Below, in pieces: positions 1,059 to 52,131 of a stretch of DNA of 62,530 bases. The translations under genes were made by a program, and so were the position numbers. The stretch spans positions 1 through 62,530 of IMG/VR virus record IMGVR_UViG_3300044691_000381; one strand, written 5' to 3'. The stretch's first letter is position 1. Every line of letters begins with the position of its first letter. Under the pieces are notes generated by a model that saw only the letters and a list, made by a program, of their open reading frames with translations, ran no database searches and had not been told where the DNA came from. The stretch is from a virus (Duplodnaviria; Caudoviricetes).

Positions 1059-2829
1059 AGAGAAGGCAGAACTTCGATGGAGGCTGGAGGAGCGCGAGCG
1101 GTACGCGGCGGCAACGGAGCAAGAGCAGCAAAAGATTCGGGAGACGGCGCGGCTGCAGGCTGACTTCACCGCCTTCGTCAAAGCCGCATGGCCGATCCTT
1201 GACCCGGGTAATACTCTTTCGTGGTCGTGGCACTACAACCTGATTGCGGAGTACCTGACGCTGGCGGCGGAGAAGAAGTGTCGGCGGCTGATCATCAACA
1301 TCCCGCCCCGGACACTCAAGTCCATCCTCATCACGGTGATGTTTCCGGTTTGGGTGTGGACGCGGTCGCCGCAAGCGTCGTTTGCTTGTGCCTCGTACGC
1401 CGACAAGCTCTCAACAGAGCACTCGGTAAAGCGTCGGCGGTTGATTGAGTCGGACTGGTTTCGCGGGCTATGGGGGGATCGGATCTGGCTGCAGAAGGAC
1501 CAGAACGAGAAGACTAAGTTTCAGAACAACTACCAGGCGCAGATGATTGCGACCTCGGTAGGCGGCACGGCAACCGGTCTAGGTGGTAACTTCCTCATCG
1601 TCGACGATGGATTGAAGCCGGATGAGGCAGTATCCGAGGCGGCGGTCACGGCGCTGCATGGGTGGTTCGATAACACCTGGCGATCACGGCTCAACAACCC
1701 GGCAGAAGATGTGATGATCATCGTCGAGCAGCGCATCGGGGAGCTGGACCTTACCGGCCACTGCGCCTCGGTCGACAAGGACCTTGTAGCAAAAGGGGAG
1801 AAGCCGCAATGGACCGTGCTTTGCATCCCCATGGAGGCGGATGAAGAGGCGGTCGATAAGAACACGCTGATGCAGCGGTTTGTCTTCCCCGTCTCGGGGA
1901 TGATCAAAGACCGGCCGCTGGGGGATGTGCTGCAGCCCAACCGGTTCCCGCCTGAGGTTGTGGCGGCATGGAAGATTCTGAGGATTACCTGGGCGACACA
2001 GTACCAGGGTAGGCCGTCACCGCTTGAAGGCAACATGATCAAGCGCAGCGACGTGATGTACTACGGCGGCCGCGATCCTGACACTGGGGATGCAGACGAA
2101 AGACTTCCAGAGAAGTTCGACCTCATCCTGACCAGCGTCGACGCAGCATTCAAAGACCTCAAGACGAGCGATTACGTCTGCGTGGGAACCATCGGAGTCA
2201 AAGGCCGAAAGCGGTACATTCTCGAGGTCGTCAACAAGCACCTCGACGCACCGGCAACGGAGACTGAGGCGCGGCGCCAGCGGGAGAAGTACAAGAGTTC
2301 TGCTGTTCTGATCGAGGACAAAGCCAACGGCTCCGCAGTCATCAAGAGCATGCGGCGCAATGTCTCAGGCGTGGTTCCGATCGAGCCTGAGGGTGGAAAG
2401 ATTTCCCGCTTCTTCGCGATGTGCGGGGAGTGGCAGGCGCACGACTGGTACCTGGACCGTACAGCAGCATGGGAAGACCAGACAGTAACACAGCTCACCA
2501 AGTTCCCTGGCGTCAAGAACGATGACATAGCTGACATGATTTCGCAGGCGGCAATATACCTGCGATCACACACCTCTGGCTTCCTCGCGTTGTGGAAGAA
2601 GGAAGTTGCAGAGTACAAGTTTGAGCCTAAGACGTTAGAGGCTGCCCAGATGGAGTCCTCCTCGACGTGGCAGGAGAAGACGGCACAAAAGCCGTTGGCG
2701 CCGAACTCTGAAGTTCCGAAGATTCAAGACGTCGCTGAGTGCCATGGATGTGGGAACAAGTATTTGAGCAAGGGCGCTGACGGCTACTGGAAATGCAATG
2801 TGTGTGGGAGGAGTTCGACGGATGCCTAA
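1018..2829 (+). CDS. terL: Terminase large subunit
   Basis: Walker A variant NIPPRTLKS, Walker B LIVDD, GGTATGLGG, RNase H-like SVDAAFKD, IEDKANG, NDDIAD; extra C-terminal CxxC..CxxC ribbon. Confidence 0.95.
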   Translation: MSSAQIDLSGLTDEEKAELRWRLEERERYAAATEQEQQKIRETARLQADFTAFVKAAWPILDPGNTLSWSWHYNLIAEYLTLAAEKKCRRLIINIPPRTLKSILITVMFPVWVWTRSPQASFACASYADKLSTEHSVKRRRLIESDWFRGLWGDRIWLQKDQNEKTKFQNNYQAQMIATSVGGTATGLGGNFLIVDDGLKPDEAVSEAAVTALHGWFDNTWRSRLNNPAEDVMIIVEQRIGELDLTGHCASVDKDLVAKGEKPQWTVLCIPMEADEEAVDKNTLMQRFVFPVSGMIKDRPLGDVLQPNRFPPEVVAAWKILRITWATQYQGRPSPLEGNMIKRSDVMYYGGRDPDTGDADERLPEKFDLILTSVDAAFKDLKTSDYVCVGTIGVKGRKRYILEVVNKHLDAPATETEARRQREKYKSSAVLIEDKANGSAVIKSMRRNVSGVVPIEPEGGKISRFFAMCGEWQAHDWYLDRTAAWEDQTVTQLTKFPGVKNDDIADMISQAAIYLRSHTSGFLALWKKEVAEYKFEPKTLEAAQMESSSTWQEKTAQKPLAPNSEVPKIQDVAECHGCGNKYLSKGADGYWKCNVCGRSSTDA

Positions 2830-3166
2830 CCTGCTAAAGACAATCCGCAACATCATTCGCCTCGCGTTTCAACTGTGCTCGCTCTGGTTGGAGCGTCGGC
2901 GCAATAAGGCTGTGGGCCTAGCTAATAAGTTGATCGTCCACTACCTCTACCGCGTGACCGGGAAAGAGAAGTGCCCGGCGTGCGGATCCAGAGCGAAGCA
3001 CGAGTATAAGTTCAACCCGGCATATCGGGCGGTGATTCATCGCTGCAAGGTATGCGTCGCAGAGTGGGGACAGAAGCCCCTTGTGATTGCGGACCAGTGG
3101 ATGCTTGTACCGCAGCAGCAACAGCCACAAACGCCGCGCGGGCCGGTGGGACACTACGATGCCTGA
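2822..3166 (+). CDS. Hypothetical Zn-ribbon protein
   Basis: CPACG...CKVC; overlaps terL stop. Confidence 0.6.
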   Translation: MPNLLKTIRNIIRLAFQLCSLWLERRRNKAVGLANKLIVHYLYRVTGKEKCPACGSRAKHEYKFNPAYRAVIHRCKVCVAEWGQKPLVIADQWMLVPQQQQPQTPRGPVGHYDA

Positions 3167-3276
3167 CTCCGCCGAGGATGGCAGCTAAAGTTTGAAGTTG
3201 ATCCCGCAAGTAGTCTTGGCGCGGGTACGGCCTGACGCTGGCAATAGCGTTGCTCCAACCGAAAGCGGAGCGAATC

Positions 3277-3579
3277 ATGAGAACACGTTGCAAGTTTCAG
3301 GTAGTCGGCGTAGAAGTCGTCAATCACGCACTTGGCGAGAACATCGAAAAGCCCGCAACGGAGCCGGGTGGTTACAAGTCGTACGAGTTCAAGCCCAGCG
3401 GTAAATTCGCACAGAACGTGCGTTTGGCCGCCGTCTACAACCCCGAAAGCGCGGAGGATGTCAGCTTCGCAGCTGCGACTCCAAGCGGAGAAGTGAAGAT
3501 CTACGTAAGCAACCCGGCGGTTGTCGGCACGTTCAAGCCCGGCGATTACTATTACGTTGACCTGATTCCCTGCGAATAG
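3277..3579 (+). CDS. Conserved phage hypothetical protein
   Basis: MRTRCKFQV...FAAATPSGEVKIYVSNPA...FKPGDYYYVDL; GGAG SD. Confidence 0.75.
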   Translation: MRTRCKFQVVGVEVVNHALGENIEKPATEPGGYKSYEFKPSGKFAQNVRLAAVYNPESAEDVSFAAATPSGEVKIYVSNPAVVGTFKPGDYYYVDLIPCE

Positions 3580-3654: not shown

Positions 3655-5169
3655 ATGGCAGATTTCAGCGCGGGCAAGACGACATTGACGCCTTTCCGCG
3701 CTGGCGGATCGGGGGTAACCTCTGCAGGTTGGTTCTCACCTCTCCAGCCTCTGACGCCGGTGGCACCGCAAGGCACTCTCCCGCGGCAGTACCCCTACCC
3801 ATGGGGAGCGAACTACGACTGGACGCCGCGGTCGAATGAGCCGATCGGCTTCGACATCCTCCGGACGGTCGCTGACCCTGCGCTGGGTGGCTGGGATCTA
3901 CTCAGAAACGCCATAGAGCGCCGCAAGGACATCATGTGCGGGCATGAGTGGGAGATTCGGAAGAAGACGGAGCCTGGAGACACCAAGGGACGGCGGGCGG
4001 CGAAGAACGACAAGACGGCGGCCGAGCTCAACAAGTTCTTTCAGAAGCCGGACGGCATCAGGACGCATCGCCAGTGGATGCGGATGATTCTTGAGGACCG
4101 TTATGTCATCGATGCCGTTGCCGTCTACAACCAGAAGGAAGGCATCAAGGGCACGGTTGAGAAGGTAGAGAAAGGCGTCAAGCATAAGCAGGTGATTCAA
4201 CAGGGAAAAATCTCCCGCTTCATGGTGCTGGCCGGGGACACGATTACACGCTGCCTGGACATTCAGGGGCTCACCCCTCAACCGCCCGCAGTGGCTTACC
4301 AGCAGATAACCTACGGTTCGGTCTCGAACGACTTCACCACAAACGACCTGATTTACGTGATGTCGAATGAGCGGGCCAACCGCCGGTACGGATTCTCAAA
4401 GGTTGAGCAGGTCCTGAACACGATCACCTTGGGCCTCAGCCGGCAGCAGTTCCAGCGGGACTACTACAAAGAGGGCAACATCCCGCAAGCTCTGGCGTTC
4501 CTTGACCCTATGGTGACGCCGGATCAGATCACAGAGCATCAGAACGCCTTTGACGCGCGCTTCTCGGGGAACATCAAGGCCAAGTCTCACCTGACATTCT
4601 TGCCGGGCACCAAAGACGGTAAGCCTTCGATCATCTTCCCGAAAGAGGTTTTGCTCAAAGATGAGCTTGATGTCTGGCTGATGCAGATTGTCTGCGCAAC
4701 GTTCGGCGTGAGCGCCCAGCCGTTCCAGAAGCAGATGAACCGGGCCTCTTCCGAGGAAGCCAACGACGCCTCGCAGGAGCAGTCAGTCGAGCCAGAGCTT
4801 CGGGAGAACGAAGACCTTCTCAACTCGATGATTGCAGCCCTTGGTTATGGGGACGATTACGAATTTGCCTACCAGCAGCACCGGGAAGCCGATGTACTGA
4901 AGCAGGCCCAGGCCGACAACCTCCGCGTCGGCAAGTCAGAGACGATGAATGAGCAGCGCGAAGCGAGAGGCTTGGATCCAAGGCCGGAGCCGGAAGCGGA
5001 CATGCTTGGCGTCTTCTCCCAAACCATGGGATTTATCCCGCTAGGAGTGAACCCCAATGCAGATGCAAGCGATAGCGAAACCGACAAGCCTGACGCTGAA
5101 GCCGGGAAAGCTGGGGACGCCAAAAAGCCAGCCGGAAAAGGAAAAACTGAGAAAGTAGGCGAGAAATGA
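3655..5169 (+). CDS. Portal protein
   Basis: About 500 aa after terL; AYQQI, YGFSKVEQ, YYKEGNIP, IVCATFGVS portal-like motifs. Confidence 0.9.
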   Translation: MADFSAGKTTLTPFRAGGSGVTSAGWFSPLQPLTPVAPQGTLPRQYPYPWGANYDWTPRSNEPIGFDILRTVADPALGGWDLLRNAIERRKDIMCGHEWEIRKKTEPGDTKGRRAAKNDKTAAELNKFFQKPDGIRTHRQWMRMILEDRYVIDAVAVYNQKEGIKGTVEKVEKGVKHKQVIQQGKISRFMVLAGDTITRCLDIQGLTPQPPAVAYQQITYGSVSNDFTTNDLIYVMSNERANRRYGFSKVEQVLNTITLGLSRQQFQRDYYKEGNIPQALAFLDPMVTPDQITEHQNAFDARFSGNIKAKSHLTFLPGTKDGKPSIIFPKEVLLKDELDVWLMQIVCATFGVSAQPFQKQMNRASSEEANDASQEQSVEPELRENEDLLNSMIAALGYGDDYEFAYQQHREADVLKQAQADNLRVGKSETMNEQREARGLDPRPEPEADMLGVFSQTMGFIPLGVNPNADASDSETDKPDAEAGKAGDAKKPAGKGKTEKVGEK

Positions 5170-5447
5170 TCATCAACATCGGTTCGACTGTCAACAATGC
5201 GAGCATCTATGGGCCAGATAGCCCGTTTCCCGTGGACACGGTGATAGTGCCAGAGCCGGGAGAAGTAACTGGTTCGCGGTATAGGTTCGGCCTGAGCAGC
5301 GCAGACACGGCAGCGATGCTGCGGAAGCTCGCGGACGACATCGAGAGCAAGGCCGTCAGCATCCAGTCCACGGCCAAGTCGTACGAGCATTCAATCGAAG
5401 ACTTTGAACTGACCAGGCTGACGGTCGTTTACGGTGAGCCGCGATGA
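5166..5447 (+). CDS. Hypothetical protein
   Basis: ATGA-coupled to portal and to the next ORF. Confidence 0.6.
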   Translation: MIINIGSTVNNASIYGPDSPFPVDTVIVPEPGEVTGSRYRFGLSSADTAAMLRKLADDIESKAVSIQSTAKSYEHSIEDFELTRLTVVYGEPR

Positions 5448-5707
5448 ACGACGATCTACGCCAGCACCAGTACGACGCCCTCCGCAATGAGGACACCGCG
5501 CCATTCATCCGGAAGTACCTCCGAAAGCAGTTGCACGACAACCAAGGCGGTTCACTGGGCCACGAGATTGAGCAGAGGCGCACATACCCACAAGGGGAGT
5601 CCACCATACGGCGGTCCCCTAAGCCTCTCAAGCCTGCGCACCTTAGCGGGCGGCAGTTTGCGAAGCTGCGGAAGCAGGCGCAGAAGATTGTCAGAGCAAG
5701 TTCCTAA
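5444..5707 (+). CDS. Hypothetical basic protein
   Basis: ATGA-coupled ORF. Confidence 0.55.
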   Translation: MNDDLRQHQYDALRNEDTAPFIRKYLRKQLHDNQGGSLGHEIEQRRTYPQGESTIRRSPKPLKPAHLSGRQFAKLRKQAQKIVRASS

Positions 5708-44352: not shown

Positions 44353-44607
44353 CTAAAGCGTCATGAAGCTTGCATCCCCCGGCGCGGCGCCGAGCTTGCG
44401 AAGAATGGTTGGCTCAACCGTGGGAGAGAAGGGCTGGGCGTTCTGCTGGGTGATGTAGCGCAACAGGATCCTTGCCTCTGGGTTCGCTCTCAGCTTGCGA
44501 AACGCTTCCCGCTCCAAGCGCGATACCTCGGCCTGAGAGATTCCCAATCGGAGCGCTACTACTTCCTGACTACGTACGGCGACTTCGCGGACGCGGCGGG
44601 ATTCCAT
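44353..44607 (-). CDS. Stand-alone sigma-70 region 4 HTH protein
   Basis: SQEVVA.RLGISQ.EVSRLEREAFRKLR. Confidence 0.75.
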   Translation of the reverse strand: MESRRVREVAVRSQEVVALRLGISQAEVSRLEREAFRKLRANPEARILLRYITQQNAQPFSPTVEPTILRKLGAAPGDASFMTL

Positions 44608-47093: not shown

Positions 47094-47342
47094 TCATCGT
47101 GCACCTCCAGCGGCAGCCATCTTGCCGTCGGCTACCGGCTTGGGTTCCACGGCTCCGGTGCCATGGCAGAAAGAGCAGGGGATGTGAAAGGTTGCGTACC
47201 CGCAGGAGTAGTTCTTGCGTGCGAAGCGGGTGGGAATCTCAGCAACGACCTTGCCGCTGCCCTTGCAGTTGCCGCAGACCTTGCGGGTGGACTGGATGTT
47301 GGCAATCTCGCGCTCACTGAGGACTGGAGTTTTAGTCGCCAT
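47094..47342 (-). CDS. DnaJ-type Zn-finger mini-protein
   Basis: CGNCKGSG and CSFCHGTG; GGAGG SD. Confidence 0.7.
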   Translation of the reverse strand: MATKTPVLSEREIANIQSTRKVCGNCKGSGKVVAEIPTRFARKNYSCGYATFHIPCSFCHGTGAVEPKPVADGKMAAAGGAR

Positions 47343-47542
47343 TAGCGGCCTCCCTCTGCGGTGAGAAGGTTGGGAAGCTGCACCATCTCTTCGGGAGTGA
47401 TCGGCGAGAGCCAGTCGTGAACCGCGTGCGCCGCATCGTTGGGGCAGCGCCGGCAGGGGGCGGGATCGCCCAATTTGAAGGGTCCAGGTACGAAGGGATG
47501 TGTTCCGAGGTGAACCCGCGTAATGCGAGGGTTATTTGGCAT
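47342..47542 (-). CDS. First gene of leftward early operon (His/Cys mini-protein)
   Basis: AGGAGG SD; HPF...CRRC....H.VH. Confidence 0.65.
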   Translation of the reverse strand: MPNNPRITRVHLGTHPFVPGPFKLGDPAPCRRCPNDAAHAVHDWLSPITPEEMVQLPNLLTAEGGR

Positions 47543-47572
47543 CGTTATCGACCTCCTACAGCCGATGACGAC

Positions 47573-47602
47573 ACTCTAGTCTCAACTAGTGTGCAAAGTC
47601 AA
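47573..47602 (-). promoter_or_regulatory. Leftward early promoter (PL-like)
   Basis: TTGACT-N18-TAGAGT with ACTAGT inside the spacer. Confidence 0.7.
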
Positions 47603-47614
47603 CTTAAATTAGTT

Positions 47615-47632
47615 TCATACACTAGTGTATGA
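47615..47632. promoter_or_regulatory. Perfect 18-bp palindrome, putative operator
   Basis: TCATACACTAGTGTATGA. Confidence 0.7.
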
Positions 47633-47664
47633 CTAGAATCAACCCGAAGGGTGCTATTGTGAAT

Positions 47665-47874
47665 CTCGGGTTCCCCGCATAAGTGGGTTGAGCCTCGCCG
47701 GGCCGCTCCCGTTGTGCTCCCGAGGGCGCACTCCTACCGCGGGGGCGGTTCCGGCACACTAAAGATTGTGATGGGGACGGGATTTCATGGAGTCCAAGGC
47801 CACCGTCTCAAAAGAGCCAATAAAGCTGCCCATTGCAAACAGAAAGGCCCTCCGAAGAGGGTCTTTCTGTTTGC
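47665..47874 (+). ncRNA. Candidate structured sRNA
   Basis: Extended -10 TGcTATTGT (47652-47660), nested GC-rich stems, ends at terminator; no convincing ORF. Confidence 0.4.
47835..47874. terminator. Bidirectional intrinsic terminator
   Basis: 18-bp arms GCAAACAGAAAGGCCCTC / GAGGGTCTTTCTGTTTGC, loop CGAA (TTCG on -). Confidence 0.85.
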
Positions 47875-47898
47875 CCGGCCACCCAGCCGGGGAGCGCA

Positions 47899-48267
47899 CT
47901 ACTTCTTAGTATTCCATTCAGGCAGGCCCAGTAACTCCTCTTTGCCGGCCACGGTCAGGCTGCCAACTTTTAGCGCGATCCTGATGCCCACTTCAACATT
48001 CGACGCGGCGCGCTTCTTTCCTATGGCGACGCCGCCATCCATGAGGATCTTCTGCAGGTCTACCTTCGGCATGGGATTGCCATGTTCTTCCAGAACGGTC
48101 CGTATGGCAACCAGCGGCCTAACATTGTAGAAGCGGGTTGCCGGGGAGTCCGCCAGCCCTTCGGACAGCGCCTCGAATCTGTTGAGGGCTGCCAGCGCGG
48201 CCTTGCGGGGCTTGAGTTGTGCTTTCAGTTGCTCGATCTCTAGTTCCAGGGTTTCGCGTGAGTTCAT
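47899..48267 (-). CDS. Coiled-coil plus winged-helix protein (paralogue 2), putative regulator
   Basis: DSPATRFY..AIR.VLEEHG.PM.K.DL.KILMDGG...LLGLPEW; AGGAGG SD. Confidence 0.75.
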   Translation of the reverse strand: MNSRETLELEIEQLKAQLKPRKAALAALNRFEALSEGLADSPATRFYNVRPLVAIRTVLEEHGNPMPKVDLQKILMDGGVAIGKKRAASNVEVGIRIALKVGSLTVAGKEELLGLPEWNTKK

Positions 48268-48302
48268 TGTCGTTGTCGCCCTCCTACAGGGGACGTACCG
48301 AT

Positions 48303-48710
48303 CTACTTCTTGTTCGCCCACTCAGGAAGGCCGATAAGCTCGTCGTCAGCTATTTTTGCTTTCTTATCTTTGCCCGACCGCGTGATGTTGTTGTTCCTGG
48401 CATTGATCTTGATTGACAGGTCGATGTCGCTCTCAGGGGTCTCGTTTCCGTCTGCCGCGCCGCCGTCAAGCAATATCTTTCGCAGTTCGGCCTTCTTCAT
48501 CGGCTTGCCGTGCTCTTCAAGGATTTCCCGGATCGAGGCTTTGTGTTTCTTCTTGTAGAAGCGGGTCGAGGGGGAGTCGGGCAGTTCTTCGACCTCCCCC
48601 TTTTTGAGGACTGCACGAGCGGCCTTCTTACGCTTTAGCAGAGATGCGATCTGCTCCATTTGAGCTTCCAACTCCTCGATCTCCCGGTCCAACATTTCGC
48701 TTGAATCCAT
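48303..48710 (-). CDS. Coiled-coil plus winged-helix protein (paralogue 1), putative repressor
   Basis: DSPSTRFY..SIREILEEHGKPMKKAELRKILLDGG...LIGLPEW; resembles HARE-HTH/RpoE N-domain. Confidence 0.75.
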   Translation of the reverse strand: MDSSEMLDREIEELEAQMEQIASLLKRKKAARAVLKKGEVEELPDSPSTRFYKKKHKASIREILEEHGKPMKKAELRKILLDGGAADGNETPESDIDLSIKINARNNNITRSGKDKKAKIADDELIGLPEWANKK

Positions 48711-48714
48711 AGTT

Positions 48715-49221
48715 TTACAAGATCGCCCGAATGGCGTGTCCTTCCATCGGCTCCAATTTTTCAGATATGCGCTCGATGAGTTTCAATTCTTCCCCGTACG
48801 TCCAGAGAAGATCGCAGGTGTAATGTCTACCGAGTCCGAGTCTACCAATAACCTTCTCGATTACGGAAAGAAGAATTTGCCACCGCAGTTTTGCGTGGTC
48901 CTCACGCATGATCTCGAACATGGTCGCCATCTCAGAGTCCTCCGATTGAACGATTCTGGCATGGTTGGCGAAACATACGAACTGCCGTGAGTTCCAAAAT
49001 ATATTCAAGAGGTCGTCCTTCGATAGATGCACGTCCTGCCTAGAGGCTGGGTCTTTGCCGGAACGTATGCCGTGGAGTGTTACCCGTCCAGATTCACTGA
49101 GCGGGCGTGTCTCGCGGAGAAATGTTTCAACGGTGATGCCCCTTCGGTGGAAGCGGGATATGGAAGAGGAGGCTAAGGCTCCGGCCAGGAGAGCGGCTGC
49201 TCCGGAATAGATCGAATTCAT
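48715..49221 (-). CDS. Membrane-anchored helical protein (partner of 7-TM)
   Basis: ATGA overlap with 7-TM stop; weak N-terminal hydrophobic anchor, helical body. Confidence 0.75.
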   Translation of the reverse strand: MNSIYSGAAALLAGALASSSISRFHRRGITVETFLRETRPLSESGRVTLHGIRSGKDPASRQDVHLSKDDLLNIFWNSRQFVCFANHARIVQSEDSEMATMFEIMREDHAKLRWQILLSVIEKVIGRLGLGRHYTCDLLWTYGEELKLIERISEKLEPMEGHAIRAIL

Positions 49222-49976
49222 GAGGTTAGGGACCTTTCGTGTCGTGACGGTTCGTGGAGGTGGCTCCGGTACTTGCGGAGAGCCGTCTTCAGGAGTTCCG
49301 TCTGGGCGGGGTCCCACTGATGACTAGCGACTTGGTAATTGGAGGAGATGAACCAAAGTACGAGGGAGATGAGGTAAGTGATTTCGGTGACGTGGGTGAC
49401 TCGGACCGCCAGATGCGTCCTGATGGCGGTATCAACTGCCCCAGAGCGGGCAATCGCATAGAGCGAAAACCCGAGGTAAACCAGTAGCAGCCGGGTATCT
49501 TTTGCGGAGTCGACCATCCAAGCATAGAGCGGTGCCGCTGCCAGCATCAGGCAAAACCAGTACAGTGCGACGTGATCGACCGCAAGAAACCACTTCCATC
49601 CCGGATCGATGTTGCTGGTGAGGGGGAAGCGCAGCGTCAGAATCGCGATTGCAAGCATGCAGCCAGCGAAGACCTGGAGGAGAACAGGATTCCTGTCCGG
49701 GATGCCGGTCTTGCGGATCGCCTGGAAGAGGGCCACCACGAGATAGATATGGGCGGCATAATCAACAAACCACCCTACCCAGCAGGCCGCGTGGTAGACC
49801 TGCCATGGAGCCAAGCGAGCCACAGCGAAGAGCCAGATGGAATTGCCGACCACCGCCCCTAGATATGCCGCCAACGCGATGTTGCGGCGCCTATAGGCCC
49901 ACAGGCCGACAGTAAGTTGACCGAGTACGACAGCAAGCCAGATGCAAAGCTGGAGGTGGGTGATTTTAGTATGCAA
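49218..49976 (-). CDS. 7-transmembrane protein, putative peptide receptor
   Basis: Seven hydrophobic segments by eye, short cytoplasmic tail, no enzymatic domain; TTG start. Confidence 0.8.
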   Translation of the reverse strand: MHTKITHLQLCIWLAVVLGQLTVGLWAYRRRNIALAAYLGAVVGNSIWLFAVARLAPWQVYHAACWVGWFVDYAAHIYLVVALFQAIRKTGIPDRNPVLLQVFAGCMLAIAILTLRFPLTSNIDPGWKWFLAVDHVALYWFCLMLAAAPLYAWMVDSAKDTRLLLVYLGFSLYAIARSGAVDTAIRTHLAVRVTHVTEITYLISLVLWFISSNYQVASHQWDPAQTELLKTALRKYRSHLHEPSRHERSLTS

Positions 49977-50009
49977 GGCGCCCCCGGATGGAAGCGCCCT
50001 GCACGGGGT

Positions 50010-50201
50010 CTACTTCTTGTGAGGCTTGACCGGCAAAGGTGCCGGCGCCTTGTGGGAACCGCAGGCGGGGGGACACGGAGTTGGAACTCCTACCGGGCCT
50101 TGTGCGAGAAGAGACGCATCGTTGCGCGTGGCAACATGCATAGACGCAAACAGGGCCAGAACAAGAACAAAGGCGAAGAATAAAGCCAGACGAGTTTTCA
50201 T
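50010..50201 (-). CDS. Small secreted peptide precursor
   Basis: AAGGAG SD; Sec-type signal MKTR-LALFFAFVLVLALFA; core LLA-QGPVGVPTPCPPAC. Confidence 0.8.
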   Translation of the reverse strand: MKTRLALFFAFVLVLALFASMHVATRNDASLLAQGPVGVPTPCPPACGSHKAPAPLPVKPHKK

Positions 50202-50299
50202 TGAAAGCTCCTTTGGCGCGTGAATGCGCTACACAGAGCTTACGAAGGGAAAGGTGCTGGCAATAGAGAGCAGGCGAGGTAACTTTGCTGCGAACCAGA

Positions 50300-50328
50300 A
50301 CAGTAACCAAAGTCATAGGAAAAGACAA
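50300..50328 (-). promoter_or_regulatory. Putative sigma70 promoter of the peptide/7-TM operon
   Basis: TTGTCT-N17-TACTGT. Confidence 0.55.
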
Positions 50329-50479
50329 GAGGAATTTCCGATGACACGGAAGTCCTTTGTCTACTACACGACGATGAGGTAAATGGGGACCGGGTGAGAC
50401 ATAGCTGGAACTGGCTGTGGAAAAAACCAATGGGGGAACGCATCGCATGAAGGCCAAATCACTGTCAGAGCAATTTCTG

Positions 50480-50500
50480 CCAGTGGCAGTTTGAGTGGCA
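50480..50500. repeat. Integrase arm-type repeat, copy 1
   Basis: CCAGTGGCAGTTTGAGTGGCA, identical at 50744-50764. Confidence 0.8.
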
Positions 50501-50624
50501 CCTCCAGCCTGTACTCGGTGCACCTTATGCGCTTCTATGCAATTCAGACGTTTTGCGGAAGTTCTTGTCTTTATTGGTCTATGCGGCTTTATGCGTCTCG
50601 GTGCAAAGCTAGCGTACATGGCTT

Positions 50625-50687
50625 GCAGCGGACTTAAAATCCGCAGGGAGCAATCCCATGAGGGTTCAAGTCCCTCTCCGGGCACCA
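50625..50687 (+). mobile_element. attP core: 3' portion of tRNA-Leu(TAA)
   Basis: Anticodon arm GCGGA-CTTAAAA-TCCGC, long variable arm, GAGGGTTCAAGTCCCTC, TCCGGGCACCA; 5' acceptor and D-arm missing; beside integrase 3' end. Confidence 0.92.
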
Positions 50688-50712
50688 ACAAACTAAAGGT
50701 GCTTAGCTCCAT

Positions 50713-51795
50713 TTAGCCAGCCCTTCCGATCTTCTTGGAATTCCCAGTGGCAGTTTGAGTGGCAGTTCCAATTGAAACCACGTTTCGGAGTGCTGGCGCT
50801 GTCAGTATCTTCTCGACCTCGATCTGTTTATGGTCTGGGCAGAGGTGCGCATACTGTGCCGTGATGGAGATGGTCTTATGTCCGGCGAGTTCTTGGATTG
50901 TCTTCAGGGGAACCCCGGCAATCGCCAGCCATGAGCAGAACGTGTGCCGGTTGCAGTGCCAGACGTAATCCTCGATCTCAGCCGTCTCCATTGCCGGATG
51001 GAACCATGAGCGGGTATCGAAGTTGGCGCCCTGCCGGGGGAAGACTCGCTCTTTCCGCTTGGGTGTTACGCGGGCCTTGCGTGTGGCCAGAATCTCTTTC
51101 ACCTGGGAGTTCATCATCACGGTACGATCGTCGCCATTCTTTGTCGCAGTTAGGTTGATTTCATCGCGCTCAAAGTCTACCTGCCACCACTCCACGGTGT
51201 ACTGCTCAGTGAGGCGCATTCCGGAGAGCACCGAAACCGCGAACTCTTCCTTGTGGGGATCTTTGATGGCAGCGTACAGGTCGGCATATTCGGAGCGGGA
51301 GAGGAAGCGCTTGCGGCCCTTTGCTTGCGGACGTTGGTGGATTAGACGAGCCGTGTTCATCTTCACCTTCCCCAACCGTATGCCTTCTTTGTAGGCCAAG
51401 GAGACAAAGGCCTTGTAATGGTTGAAGGTGCTGTCACTGACGTCGCGCGCCTTGATCCAATCGCTGATCTCATCGGGGCCGATCTCATCGGCAATGCGCG
51501 TACCGAGCCCGTCCTTCAGCAGTGCGGCCTTAGTCACATAGTCCCGAACCGACTTGTTGTGTTCGCGCGCATAGGCAAGCGCCAGGTCTGCCAAGTCTCC
51601 AACCGTCACCTTCTTCCTCCGCAGCTCGGGAAGCTTATCTCCCGTGAGGAGTTCCGTACGGCGCTTCCGGTAGAGTTTGCCTGCGTCGGTCTTGGTGCCA
51701 GCGCGCTCCCGCCGCCGCTTGCCATGATCGAAATACTGACACCACCAGATACCGCTGCCTACCGGGCATTCGTAAACGCCCCGCTCTTTAGCCAT
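50713..51795 (-). CDS. int: Tyrosine integrase
   Basis: SGMRLTE, TKNG, HCNRHTFCSWL, LAGHKTISITAQYAH. Confidence 0.96.
   Translation of the reverse strand: MAKERGVYECPVGSGIWWCQYFDHGKRRRERAGTKTDAGKLYRKRRTELLTGDKLPELRRKKVTVGDLADLALAYAREHNKSVRDYVTKAALLKDGLGTRIADEIGPDEISDWIKARDVSDSTFNHYKAFVSLAYKEGIRLGKVKMNTARLIHQRPQAKGRKRFLSRSEYADLYAAIKDPHKEEFAVSVLSGMRLTEQYTVEWWQVDFERDEINLTATKNGDDRTVMMNSQVKEILATRKARVTPKRKERVFPRQGANFDTRSWFHPAMETAEIEDYVWHCNRHTFCSWLAIAGVPLKTIQELAGHKTISITAQYAHLCPDHKQIEVEKILTAPALRNVVSIGTATQTATGNSKKIGRAG
50744..50764. repeat. Integrase arm-type repeat, copy 2 (inside int 3' end)
   Basis: 21-bp direct repeat of 50480-50500. Confidence 0.8.
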
Positions 51796-51804
51796 GGGTT
51801 TCTC

Positions 51805-52020
51805 CTAAGCGGACACCATATCAGAATGCATAATCTCGGCGGCGACGCGCTTGACGTCTTCGCTGGGGATGAGGACGCGCCGACCCTTGCGGCGGGTTCG
51901 CAGCTTGCCATCGCTGATGAGGTAGTCGATTGCCCGGACCGACATAGCCAGGGAGCTCGCGGCTTCGTAGCGGGAATAGAAGAACTTTTCGAAGGCTACA
52001 ACCTTTGCACGCTGCTGCAT
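51805..52020 (-). CDS. xis: Excisionase (HTH_17-like)
   Basis: YSRYEAA.SL.MS.RAIDYLI.DGKL.TRRKGRRVLIP; directly upstream of int. Confidence 0.85.
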   Translation of the reverse strand: MQQRAKVVAFEKFFYSRYEAASSLAMSVRAIDYLISDGKLRTRRKGRRVLIPSEDVKRVAAEIMHSDMVSA

Positions 52021-52055
52021 GGACTTGCTCCGAGGAAGAATTTGGTTGAGTGACG

Positions 52056-52085
52056 ACTATGGTACTTTTGGACACTAGTTGTCAA
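52056..52085 (-). promoter_or_regulatory. xis/int promoter
   Basis: TTGACA-N18-CATAGT, ACTAGT next to -35. Confidence 0.7.
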
Positions 52086-52101
52086 TCTATTTTTAAACTA
52101 G

Positions 52102-52131
52102 TTGACTAAATAGTGTTAGCTGGGTTAGTGT
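52102..52131 (+). promoter_or_regulatory. Rightward early promoter (PR-like)
   Basis: TTGACT-N18-TAGTGT, ACTAGT overlapping -35. Confidence 0.7.

Follow-up and report, generated by a model that had tools for sequence, protein, structure and literature searches.

What is the role of five adjoining genes that a temperate soil phage of the Caudoviricetes carries on the minus strand, between its integration functions and an early promoter? The question is raised by IMG/VR virus record IMGVR_UViG_3300044691_000381, a 62,530-bp sequence with direct terminal repeats that looks complete and that constitutes the whole stretch of DNA analysed here (hereafter, the window). The five genes span positions 47899-50201 and encode, in order of transcription, an exported small protein of 63 aa, a protein of 252 aa with seven transmembrane segments (7-TM), a helical partner of 168 aa and two winged-helix-like paralogues, A and B, of 135 and 122 aa. 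A preliminary description of this cassette, made from the sequence alone, proposed a peptide communication system in which the 7-TM protein senses a secreted peptide at the inner membrane and the signal is relayed, without a kinase, to the winged-helix pair. Our analysis supports the compact operon described there, all five open reading frames (ORFs) having been recovered, but points to a different use for it. We tentatively read the cassette as a self-regulated envelope module that a lysogen would express to exclude superinfecting phages or to mount an abortive defence, by a mode of action like that of phage lambda RexAB, an account that we regard as plausible rather than probable.

A conserved unit beside a probable attachment site

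The cassette was compared across six loci, comprising the window, two further IMG/VR phages (L002, 59.5 kb; L003, 61.9 kb) and three short metagenome contigs (L004 to L006); alignment A2 contains the window, L002 and L003, referred to below as the three phages. Wherever the sequence extends far enough, the genes come in one order, with the peptide gene in place in four of four loci, the partner gene in six of six and a winged-helix gene in four of four. Contigs of equal length recur in the three lists of homologues, which suggests that six further contigs carry this linkage. Pairwise ratios of nonsynonymous to synonymous substitution rates (dN/dS) indicate purifying selection on the 7-TM gene (0.22-0.29), the partner gene (0.24-0.43) and the winged-helix genes (0.16-0.35). 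Judged from these sequences, the association of the genes appears to be more than chance; because all loci belong to one lineage, in which the 7-TM proteins are at least 46% identical, their co-occurrence may also reflect shared descent. Contig scans of species-representative genomes returned no match to the cassette family, leaving unconfirmed the similar peptide/7-TM/helical trios that the preliminary description had placed in Acidobacteriaceae, and searches started from single distant 7-TM relatives yielded either no locus or three loci that the family profile did not recognize.

The boundaries of the cassette look like those of a transcription unit of its own, although they differ in clarity. 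The intrinsic terminator noted previously at 47835..47874 (minus strand) was borne out, with 18-nt arms (47835-47852 and 47857-47874) that are 94% complementary, a 4-nt loop and a T-rich tail; it was matched by the terminator scan at 47861-47848, and its hairpin is retained in L002, L003 and L006. At the other end, the two hexamers put forward as a promoter, a -35 TTGTCT (50328-50323) and a -10-like TACTGT 17 nt downstream (50305-50300), are present on the minus strand and, together with the N17 spacing, are invariant in the three phages, but they match the consensus at only 7 of 12 positions and were not listed by the sigma-70 scan. The -35 hexamer is held in the right arm of a 40-bp imperfect palindrome (50323..50362, minus strand) that is conserved in all three phages. 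The inner hairpin and T-rich tail of this palindrome also scan as terminator-like (50351-50336), and the element may be either an operator or the terminator of integrase transcription.

Within the unit, a hairpin whose GGCGC/GCGCC arms are invariant and whose loop varies (49977..50009, minus strand; columns 414-448 of alignment A2) adjoins the TTG start of the 7-TM gene, the TGA of the 7-TM gene overlaps the ATG of the partner gene as ATGA, and a gap of 4 nt separates the partner gene from paralogue A. This arrangement suggests that translation of the first four genes is coupled. The junction between the 7-TM and partner genes takes other forms in the relatives: in L002 (6001-6849) the 7-TM frame is longer, at 282 aa, and its last 92 nt lie within the partner gene, and in L003 a 3-nt gap stands in place of the ATGA overlap. 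Upstream of paralogue B, a 20-nt stretch that includes the ribosome-binding site (48270-48289) is 90% identical to 47542-47561, ahead of the first early gene; the repeat may be a recombination scar or an instance of shared translational control. L003 also carries, after the one winged-helix gene that it has and ahead of the terminator region, an extra ORF (2729-3493) encoding 254 aa with a signal-peptide-like N-terminus and no match in PADLOC, and this spot appears to accept further cargo.

The cassette starts some 150 nt beyond a region (50480..50770, plus strand) that we read as attP. Just downstream of int lies a tRNA-like stretch (50612-50684) that the Rfam tRNA model scores at 29.9 bits, against a gathering score of 29, and that ARAGORN does not call as a tRNA. 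Direct repeats of 27 nt stand on either side of it (50480-50506 and 50744-50770), one of them inside the 3′ end of int, and a soil contig matches the window only over 50629-50686, its flanks differing on both sides. The region is thus probably an attachment site with a tRNA-derived core and candidate integrase arm-type sites. In the Pfam and PHROGs scan, int (50713-51795, minus strand) was recognized as a tyrosine integrase and the gene at 51805-52020 (minus strand) as an HTH_17 excisionase-like gene, xis.

Integrases and att fragments differ among the three phages, yet all three retain the cassette together with about 195 nt of the sequence upstream. In L002 there is another repeat pair (5369-5387 and 5528-5546), another tRNA fragment and another integrase, of 414 aa, and its integration module appears to have been swapped with the cassette retained. 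A more distant provirus (G006), reached through its RecE protein (48% identical), lacks the 7-TM and winged-helix genes and has int-xis set directly against the early operon, a layout from which the cassette looks accessory.

The membrane proteins and the exported protein

The 252-aa protein (49218..49976, minus strand, TTG start) conforms to its earlier description as a protein with seven hydrophobic segments and no enzymatic domain. The segments are evident in the sequence, and an AlphaFold2 model (mean predicted local distance difference test, pLDDT, 76.9; predicted template modelling score, pTM, 0.71) shows seven membrane helices and a C-terminal amphipathic helix (residues 7-29, 33-55, 58-88, 97-113, 125-155, 161-187, 194-211 and 223-240), with an N-out/C-in topology predicted by the positive-inside rule. 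Close homologues number 34 (46-92% identity), all of them metagenomic and none with a Pfam domain, and a profile search of 1.84 billion representatives recovered 36 proteins at E <=0.001, all of 200-270 aa, which appear to constitute a small, stand-alone family.

Searches of Pfam, PHROGs, NCBIfam and PADLOC returned no match to the window protein; transporter, enzyme and exclusion families, the identities that the preliminary description had set against a receptor, were likewise not recovered. Pfam searches with 35 members of the family also returned no assignment, one member other than the window protein reaching E 0.011 to 7TMR-DISM (PF07695), and the profile gave only noise against PDB sequences. 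W208 is the one residue that never varies across the wider family, in which nothing resembling a catalytic site is conserved. The name "RnfA subunit", attached by JGI to one homologue (P0011), was rejected for the window protein, which is 72% identical to that homologue and has no Pfam match.

Structural comparison places the protein among helical bundles of a general kind. Foldseek searches of the model returned nothing at E <=0.001 in either the PDB (best E 0.13, TM-score 0.44) or BFVD (best a lysoplasmalogenase, E 0.03, TM-score 0.49). With VIA-align the top rows are all G-protein-coupled receptors (GPCRs) and rhodopsins (Z 9.8-11.9, root-mean-square deviation 3.8-5.1 over 176-204 residues), values that fall below the bar of Z ~13 for helical bundles and are common among them. 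The model is best regarded as a generic GPCR/rhodopsin-like bundle: its seven helices are laid out in a similar way and its predicted orientation is likewise N-out/C-in, but there is no significant Foldseek match, no lysine in TM7 and no sequence relation. Microbial rhodopsin as such was rejected on the second of these points, residues 194-211 (TM7) containing no K and the nearest basic residues being 192 and 230.

Conservation is distributed unequally over the two faces of the 7-TM protein. Mean entropy is 0.95 in the inner half and 1.25 in the outer half (Mann-Whitney p = 0.0019), and the most conserved parts are the cytoplasmic loops RRN, KTGIP and DSAKD and the C-terminal helix.

A membrane protein of this kind could also belong to a lysogenic conversion module that alters the envelope physiology of the host, such as its ion, metal or lipid handling or its stress tolerance, under regulators of its own. 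The moron-like layout would suit this explanation, as would the extra secreted 254-aa protein that L003 carries in the same operon position, in the manner of cargo hot spots, the lysoplasmalogenase as best BFVD row and a distant 7-TM relative on a 494.7-kb contig that is probably chromosomal. The BFVD row, however, is not significant, the protein belongs to no recognized transporter or enzyme family, its wider family keeps no polar residues of a catalytic kind, and the RnfA name of one homologue finds no support in the window protein. We consider lysogenic conversion rather unlikely.

The 168-aa partner (48715..49221, minus strand) is predicted to be anchored by an N-terminus rich in Ala and Gly and to continue as a cytoplasmic domain made up entirely of helices. 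Its ATGA coupling to the 7-TM gene stands as first described; its membrane anchoring and helical nature are less secure, the anchor being weakly hydrophobic in the window copy (maximum 1.32) and the all-helical AlphaFold2 model poor (pLDDT 52.2). The partner has ten homologues, itself included (alignment A6); it belongs to no family in Pfam, PHROGs, NCBIfam or PADLOC, and a search of PDB sequences gave only noise. An Atlas feature lead to DUF4760 was rejected, its score of 0.84 falling under the 0.9 line and Pfam lending it no support. Complex prediction with the 7-TM protein, the partner and paralogue B, the last of these being scored, gave 0.00 in both runs, which had no controls and constitute no evidence either way.

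The gene that opens the cassette (50010..50201, minus strand) encodes the 63-aa protein, in which the Sec-signal precursor of the preliminary description is readily recognized. A basic N-terminus and a 15-residue hydrophobic core make up a Sec-type signal peptide, whose cleavage was judged by eye, and are followed by a Pro-rich part, a Cys-x3-Cys and a basic C-terminus. Orthologues in L002, L003 and L004 keep the signal peptide, the Cys-x3-Cys and the basic C-terminus, and the four indels that separate the three full copies all have lengths divisible by three, as befits a coding sequence. The protein has no match in Pfam, PHROGs, NCBIfam or PADLOC.

The dN/dS of this gene is 0.29-0.75, with a dS of 0.25-0.41 as against 0.77-2.2 next door. 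The low dS is in line with constraint at the nucleotide level in a block (50166..50252, minus strand) that takes in the last ~50 nt of the leader, where the Shine-Dalgarno sequence lies, and extends 12 codons into the peptide gene. In this block 86 of 87 positions are identical in the three phages, the single change turning the start ATG into GTG, and the identity spans phages whose 7-TM proteins share only 46-73% of their residues. It is the best-conserved stretch of the cassette (88-97%, compared with 30-70% elsewhere), and beyond the window it was found only in the same two phages. In one soil run, read depth over the block reaches 70-98, against 8-30 in most flanking bins (58 at most, in one bin), because several variant contigs share it. 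A hairpin sequestering the Shine-Dalgarno sequence is predicted, with a fold energy no better than that of shuffles (z -0.94) and no possibility of covariation, and Rfam finds nothing in the leader; the constraint could reflect an RNA switch, binding by a protein or targeting by an antisense RNA.

Peptide communication between temperate phages has a well-known precedent in the arbitrium systems (AimP/AimR/AimX) of Bacillus phages, in which a short C-terminal mature peptide is re-imported by the oligopeptide permease of a monoderm host and is bound by a cytoplasmic TPR/RRNPP receptor, peptides and receptors falling into matched classes. The cassette is like arbitrium in setting a signal-peptide ORF and adjacent candidate regulators in the lysogeny-side region of a temperate phage. 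It is unlike it in having no TPR/RRNPP receptor (Pfam and PHROGs, E up to 1, five proteins), in offering a membrane protein as the receptor candidate, in residing in a host that is probably diderm and in that no short mature peptide, cut from the C-terminus and falling into specificity classes, is apparent. The preliminary description had likewise remarked the lack of any TPR/RRNPP receptor or kinase, and none was found in Pfam, NCBIfam, PHROGs or PADLOC.

The nature of the host rests on three leads. A 26%-identical 7-TM relative is named from an Acidobacteriaceae metagenome-assembled genome, Atlas taxa point in the same direction, and the runs that hold the sequence are soil metagenomes. As a lead only, the host would belong to the Acidobacteriota, whose envelope is diderm.

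Intercellular communication as originally proposed would have the 63-aa precursor secreted and processed, building up outside the cells and being sensed at the inner membrane by the 7-TM protein, thereby biasing lysis or lysogeny through the winged-helix pair. The peptide gene does lie beside the 7-TM gene in all four loci with upstream sequence, evolution is rapid in the mature portion of the peptide (dN/dS up to 0.75), variation in the 7-TM protein is greater on its outward side, and the model is a GPCR-like seven-helix bundle; lacking a TPR receptor, such a system would be unrelated to arbitrium. The main objection is the route, since the Sec pathway of a diderm host takes its cargo no further than the periplasm, the product of ~4 kDa has no evident way across the outer membrane, and the cassette supplies neither exporter, maturation protease nor importer. 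An adjacent peptide gene was found as anticipated, but not its co-variation with the receptor in specificity groups: the Cys-x3-Cys and the C-terminal end remain the same even where 7-TM proteins are 46% identical, the C-terminal end being shared by four of four orthologues across 46-73% 7-TM identity. The fold match is generic (Z <=11.9 against a bar of ~13), and the best-conserved part of the peptide gene is constrained at the nucleotide and not at the protein level. In the light of these points we hold communication between cells to be most improbable.

A broader receptor-type circuit, which also strikes us as distinctly improbable, would combine a GPCR-like 7-TM protein, an exported ligand or co-receptor, a tethered adaptor at the conserved cytoplasmic face of the receptor and winged-helix DNA binders that govern transcription of the phage or of the cassette, with no kinase and with the leader as a control point. 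In its boldest form the exported protein would report the presence of kin prophages, and the circuit would be a membrane-sensed analogue of arbitrium.

Winged-helix-like paralogues and the immunity position

Paralogue A (48303..48710, minus strand) and paralogue B (47899..48267, minus strand, counted from an ATG with a GGAGGG site) share 51% identity (alignment A5) and represent two types, each with an N-terminal coiled coil and a C-terminal HARE-HTH-like winged helix. L002, L003 and L006 have a single winged-helix copy, type B occurs in each of the four loci long enough to include it, and in a soil contig the sequence is joined across the gene of paralogue A.

The resemblance to HARE-HTH (PF05066) is confined to the C-terminal ~70 residues and stays below threshold (15.4 bits for A and 12.2 bits for B, against a cut-off of 25.9), and the paralogues differ from that family in their added coiled coil. 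These are nonetheless the sole two PF05066 matches in the phage genome, and 2 of the 10 members of the winged-helix family match HARE-HTH, at E 0.02 or worse. An Atlas lead connects paralogue B, with a feature score of 0.92, to a cluster in which 28% of the members have HARE-HTH, and residues 47-117 of its model (pLDDT 0.57) superimpose on a 71-aa HARE-HTH cluster with a TM-score of 0.78 when normalised to the hit and 0.50 when normalised to the query. Against PDB sequences, both the winged-helix profile and the domain alone gave only noise. Not all HARE-HTH domains bind DNA. Of the two DNA-binding-like paralogues first proposed, the kinship and the winged-helix-like character stand, the latter with HARE-HTH similarity below threshold, and both are candidate DNA binders. 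A minimal nucleotidyltransferase of the PDC-S09 type was also considered for paralogue A (PF01909, 19.3 bits against a cut-off of 21; PDC-S09, E 1.1e-5; MntA, E 0.0026) and rejected, the D-x-D motif being absent from its closest relatives, P0074 and P0075, and from paralogue B.

The cassette does occupy the position in which a temperate phage would be expected to keep its repressor, as the preliminary description stated. Just downstream of it lies an early-left promoter-like site, TTGACT-18-TAGAGT (47573..47602, minus strand), which was found by the promoter scan, contains an embedded CTAGT-N4-ACTAG palindrome and has a -35 conserved in four of four loci. Between this site and a divergent promoter region at 52056-52125 there are only the cassette, attP, int and xis.

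In each of the three phages, a motif peculiar to that phage is common to the two promoter regions. In the window it is CACTAGTTG, which occurs at the early-left site, again at 52073-52081 and, with one mismatch, at 52096-52104; in L002 and in L003/G005 the motifs are palindromes of the GACATAAT type. The shared motifs span 47571-47597 and 52067-52116 in the window, 3798-3833 and 7911-7943 in L002, and 3791-3806 in L021 (G005) with 2805-2822 in L020, and they look like the left and right operators of heteroimmune phages. When 47 other ORFs, representing the genome outside its late half, were compared with PHROGs and/or Pfam, no CI/Cro-type family was found, and the only HTH matches were the excisionase-like gene and an 84-aa protein of the early operon (44353-44607). 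The latter matches Sigma70_r4 (25.9 bits against a cut-off of 24.1) and, weakly, HTH_3.

This setting invites comparison with lambda, in which rexA and rexB are co-transcribed with the DNA-binding protein cI. In a strictly lambda-like immunity operon, one or both winged-helix proteins would be the prophage repressor, co-transcribed with a membrane exclusion pair. The position between promoter regions that share CACTAGTTG-type motifs argues for this, as do the want of any other repressor candidate among the ORFs scanned and the fast divergence and variable copy number of the paralogues, which are like those of immunity genes. The operator-like motifs nevertheless tell a different story. L002 and L003 share the GACATAAT-type motif, which the window lacks, yet the dN between their winged-helix genes is 0.56, as against 0.40 and 0.52 to the window. 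Winged-helix proteins that do not co-vary with operator type fit regulators of the cassette better than a prophage repressor, a comparison that involves three phages and is a hint only. None of the operator-like motifs is present in the cassette promoter region, and the winged-helix proteins bear no signature of HTH_3, S24 or another repressor family.

It is the first early-left gene whose type tracks the type of the operator motif in the window, L002 and L003. In the window (47342-47542) this gene differs after its first ~11 residues from the type found in L002 (8007-8219), L003 (3847-4080) and L006 (1842-2090), and it is a candidate for a Cro-like protein or an immunity determinant. This gene, and not the winged-helix gene, follows the operators. 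All in all, we think a lambda-like immunity operon improbable.

The same observations bear on a second explanation, in which the cassette mediates kinase-free signalling from the envelope to DNA within one cell. The 7-TM and small exported proteins would sense the state of the envelope or the physiology of the host, and the tethered partner would hold or release the winged-helix proteins and so act on phage transcription in the lysis-lysogeny decision or in induction. Membrane sequestration of regulators is familiar from Mlc-PtsG, BlaR1-BlaI and anti-sigma factors. Sensor-like membrane parts and DNA-binding-like outputs are indeed joined in one operon (winged-helix gene in four of four loci), the cytoplasmic face of the 7-TM protein is conserved, the cassette lies between promoter regions sharing phage-specific motifs in three of three phages, and no CI/Cro-type repressor was found among the 47 ORFs. 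Three points count against it: the winged-helix proteins do not co-vary with operator type, the HARE-HTH scores are sub-threshold and belong to a domain that does not always bind DNA, and the repressor scan excludes the late region, about half of the genome. The relay to the winged-helix pair pictured in the preliminary description finds no support in the first of these points, and we regard signalling of this kind as unlikely, though less so than the other alternatives.

The remainder of the genome is organized around a late region on the plus strand, with a TerL-like ORF at 1006-2829 whose best identity to GenBank phages is 33.5%, and an early operon on the minus strand with RecE-like, RecT-like, HNH, RusA and DnaB-like genes. 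GenBank phages contain no match for the 7-TM protein or paralogue B. In the early region of provirus G006 (L016, 1575-2471), a 298-aa protein consists mostly of tandem STLTGG(D/Y)G repeats.

A candidate envelope defence module

Lysogen-expressed accessory and defence genes are common at the site across attP from int. Seen in this light, the cassette would become, after integration, a moron-type operon at one prophage end, reading inward from the att site. The Sec-exported, Pro-rich protein in the periplasm, the 7-TM protein and the tethered helical protein would together form a co-translated inner-membrane module, in which the partner docks on the conserved cytoplasmic face of the 7-TM protein, and the winged-helix proteins would regulate their own operon via the palindrome or the leader. 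The fast-evolving outer face and the exported protein would meet an incoming phage or an envelope perturbation, and the conserved inner face would pass the event on to the cytoplasmic partner. Complex formation, DNA binding and the defence function are all steps that we infer.

The nearest analogues of such a module are lambda RexAB and gp30/31 of mycobacteriophage Sbash, in which a membrane channel made by the prophage is paired with a cytoplasmic sensor. Pairs of a membrane and a cytoplasmic defence protein expressed in lysogeny have been described: RexB and Sbash gp31 are given four transmembrane helices, RexA and gp30 are assigned to DUF4747, and the invariant residues of gp31 fall in a cytoplasmic loop (PMC6426596). 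The cassette is like these systems in being a prophage operon near the integration and immunity region that encodes a polytopic membrane protein and a cytoplasmic partner, and its 7-TM protein is like Sbash gp31 in that conservation is concentrated in a cytoplasmic segment (PMC6426596). It differs in having seven helices and a partner with neither DUF4747 nor any other Pfam match. It further adds an exported small protein, has winged-helix proteins in place of a CI-type repressor and shows no match to those systems in sequence or in PADLOC.

Phage T4 Imm and Sp and phage P22 SieA are small exported or membrane exclusion proteins of a resident phage that act at the envelope. The cassette resembles them in encoding small exported and membrane proteins; it has no homology to them in PHROGs, and those systems lack dedicated winged-helix proteins. 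Literature searches, conducted at the level of listings, found no phage cassette of this make-up described.

We favour the defence module since the cassette is a self-contained unit, with conserved promoter hexamers, a strong terminator and overlaps or short gaps linking its genes, and since it sits across attP from int and has been retained in three phages whose integration modules differ. The conserved cytoplasmic loops of the 7-TM protein recall Sbash gp31, and the wider 7-TM family conserves no enzyme-typical set of residues. The distant provirus without the cassette is in keeping with an accessory element, and the failure of the winged-helix proteins to track operator type speaks for regulators that serve the cassette itself.

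Several considerations weigh against a defence module and keep our preference for it tentative. It is not evident why a device for exclusion should require two DNA-binding-like proteins, or a leader that is invariant in its nucleotides. None of the five cassette proteins has a PHROGs match below E 0.049, and PADLOC gave no match for the peptide, the 7-TM protein, the partner or paralogue B. Defence morons are usually sporadic, but the cassette is kept in all three close relatives; as the carriers were found by searching for the cassette, its conservation in the group is a biased figure, and the absence from provirus G006 is limited by a record that is 69% complete and differently organized. 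The all-helical model of the partner is poor. Expression of the cassette in lysogeny is presumed: no RNA run was listed for 47500-52100, and the two soil runs there are DNA contigs, which carry no information on expression.

Whichever explanation holds, the locus provides concrete objects for study in a 7-TM family of 36 representatives, a nucleotide-invariant leader and an asymmetry of conservation between the inner and outer faces of the 7-TM protein. As a defence or exclusion device, the cassette would be a system whose parts, namely a membrane protein with seven helices, an exported peptide and a tethered adaptor, are recognized by no current defence catalogue, and the phages that carry it would come from a poorly studied soil phylum. 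If it is instead a sensor wired to DNA-binding proteins, it would constitute kinase-free 7-TM signalling in a bacterial virus and would widen the range of routes by which temperate phages reach their decisions.

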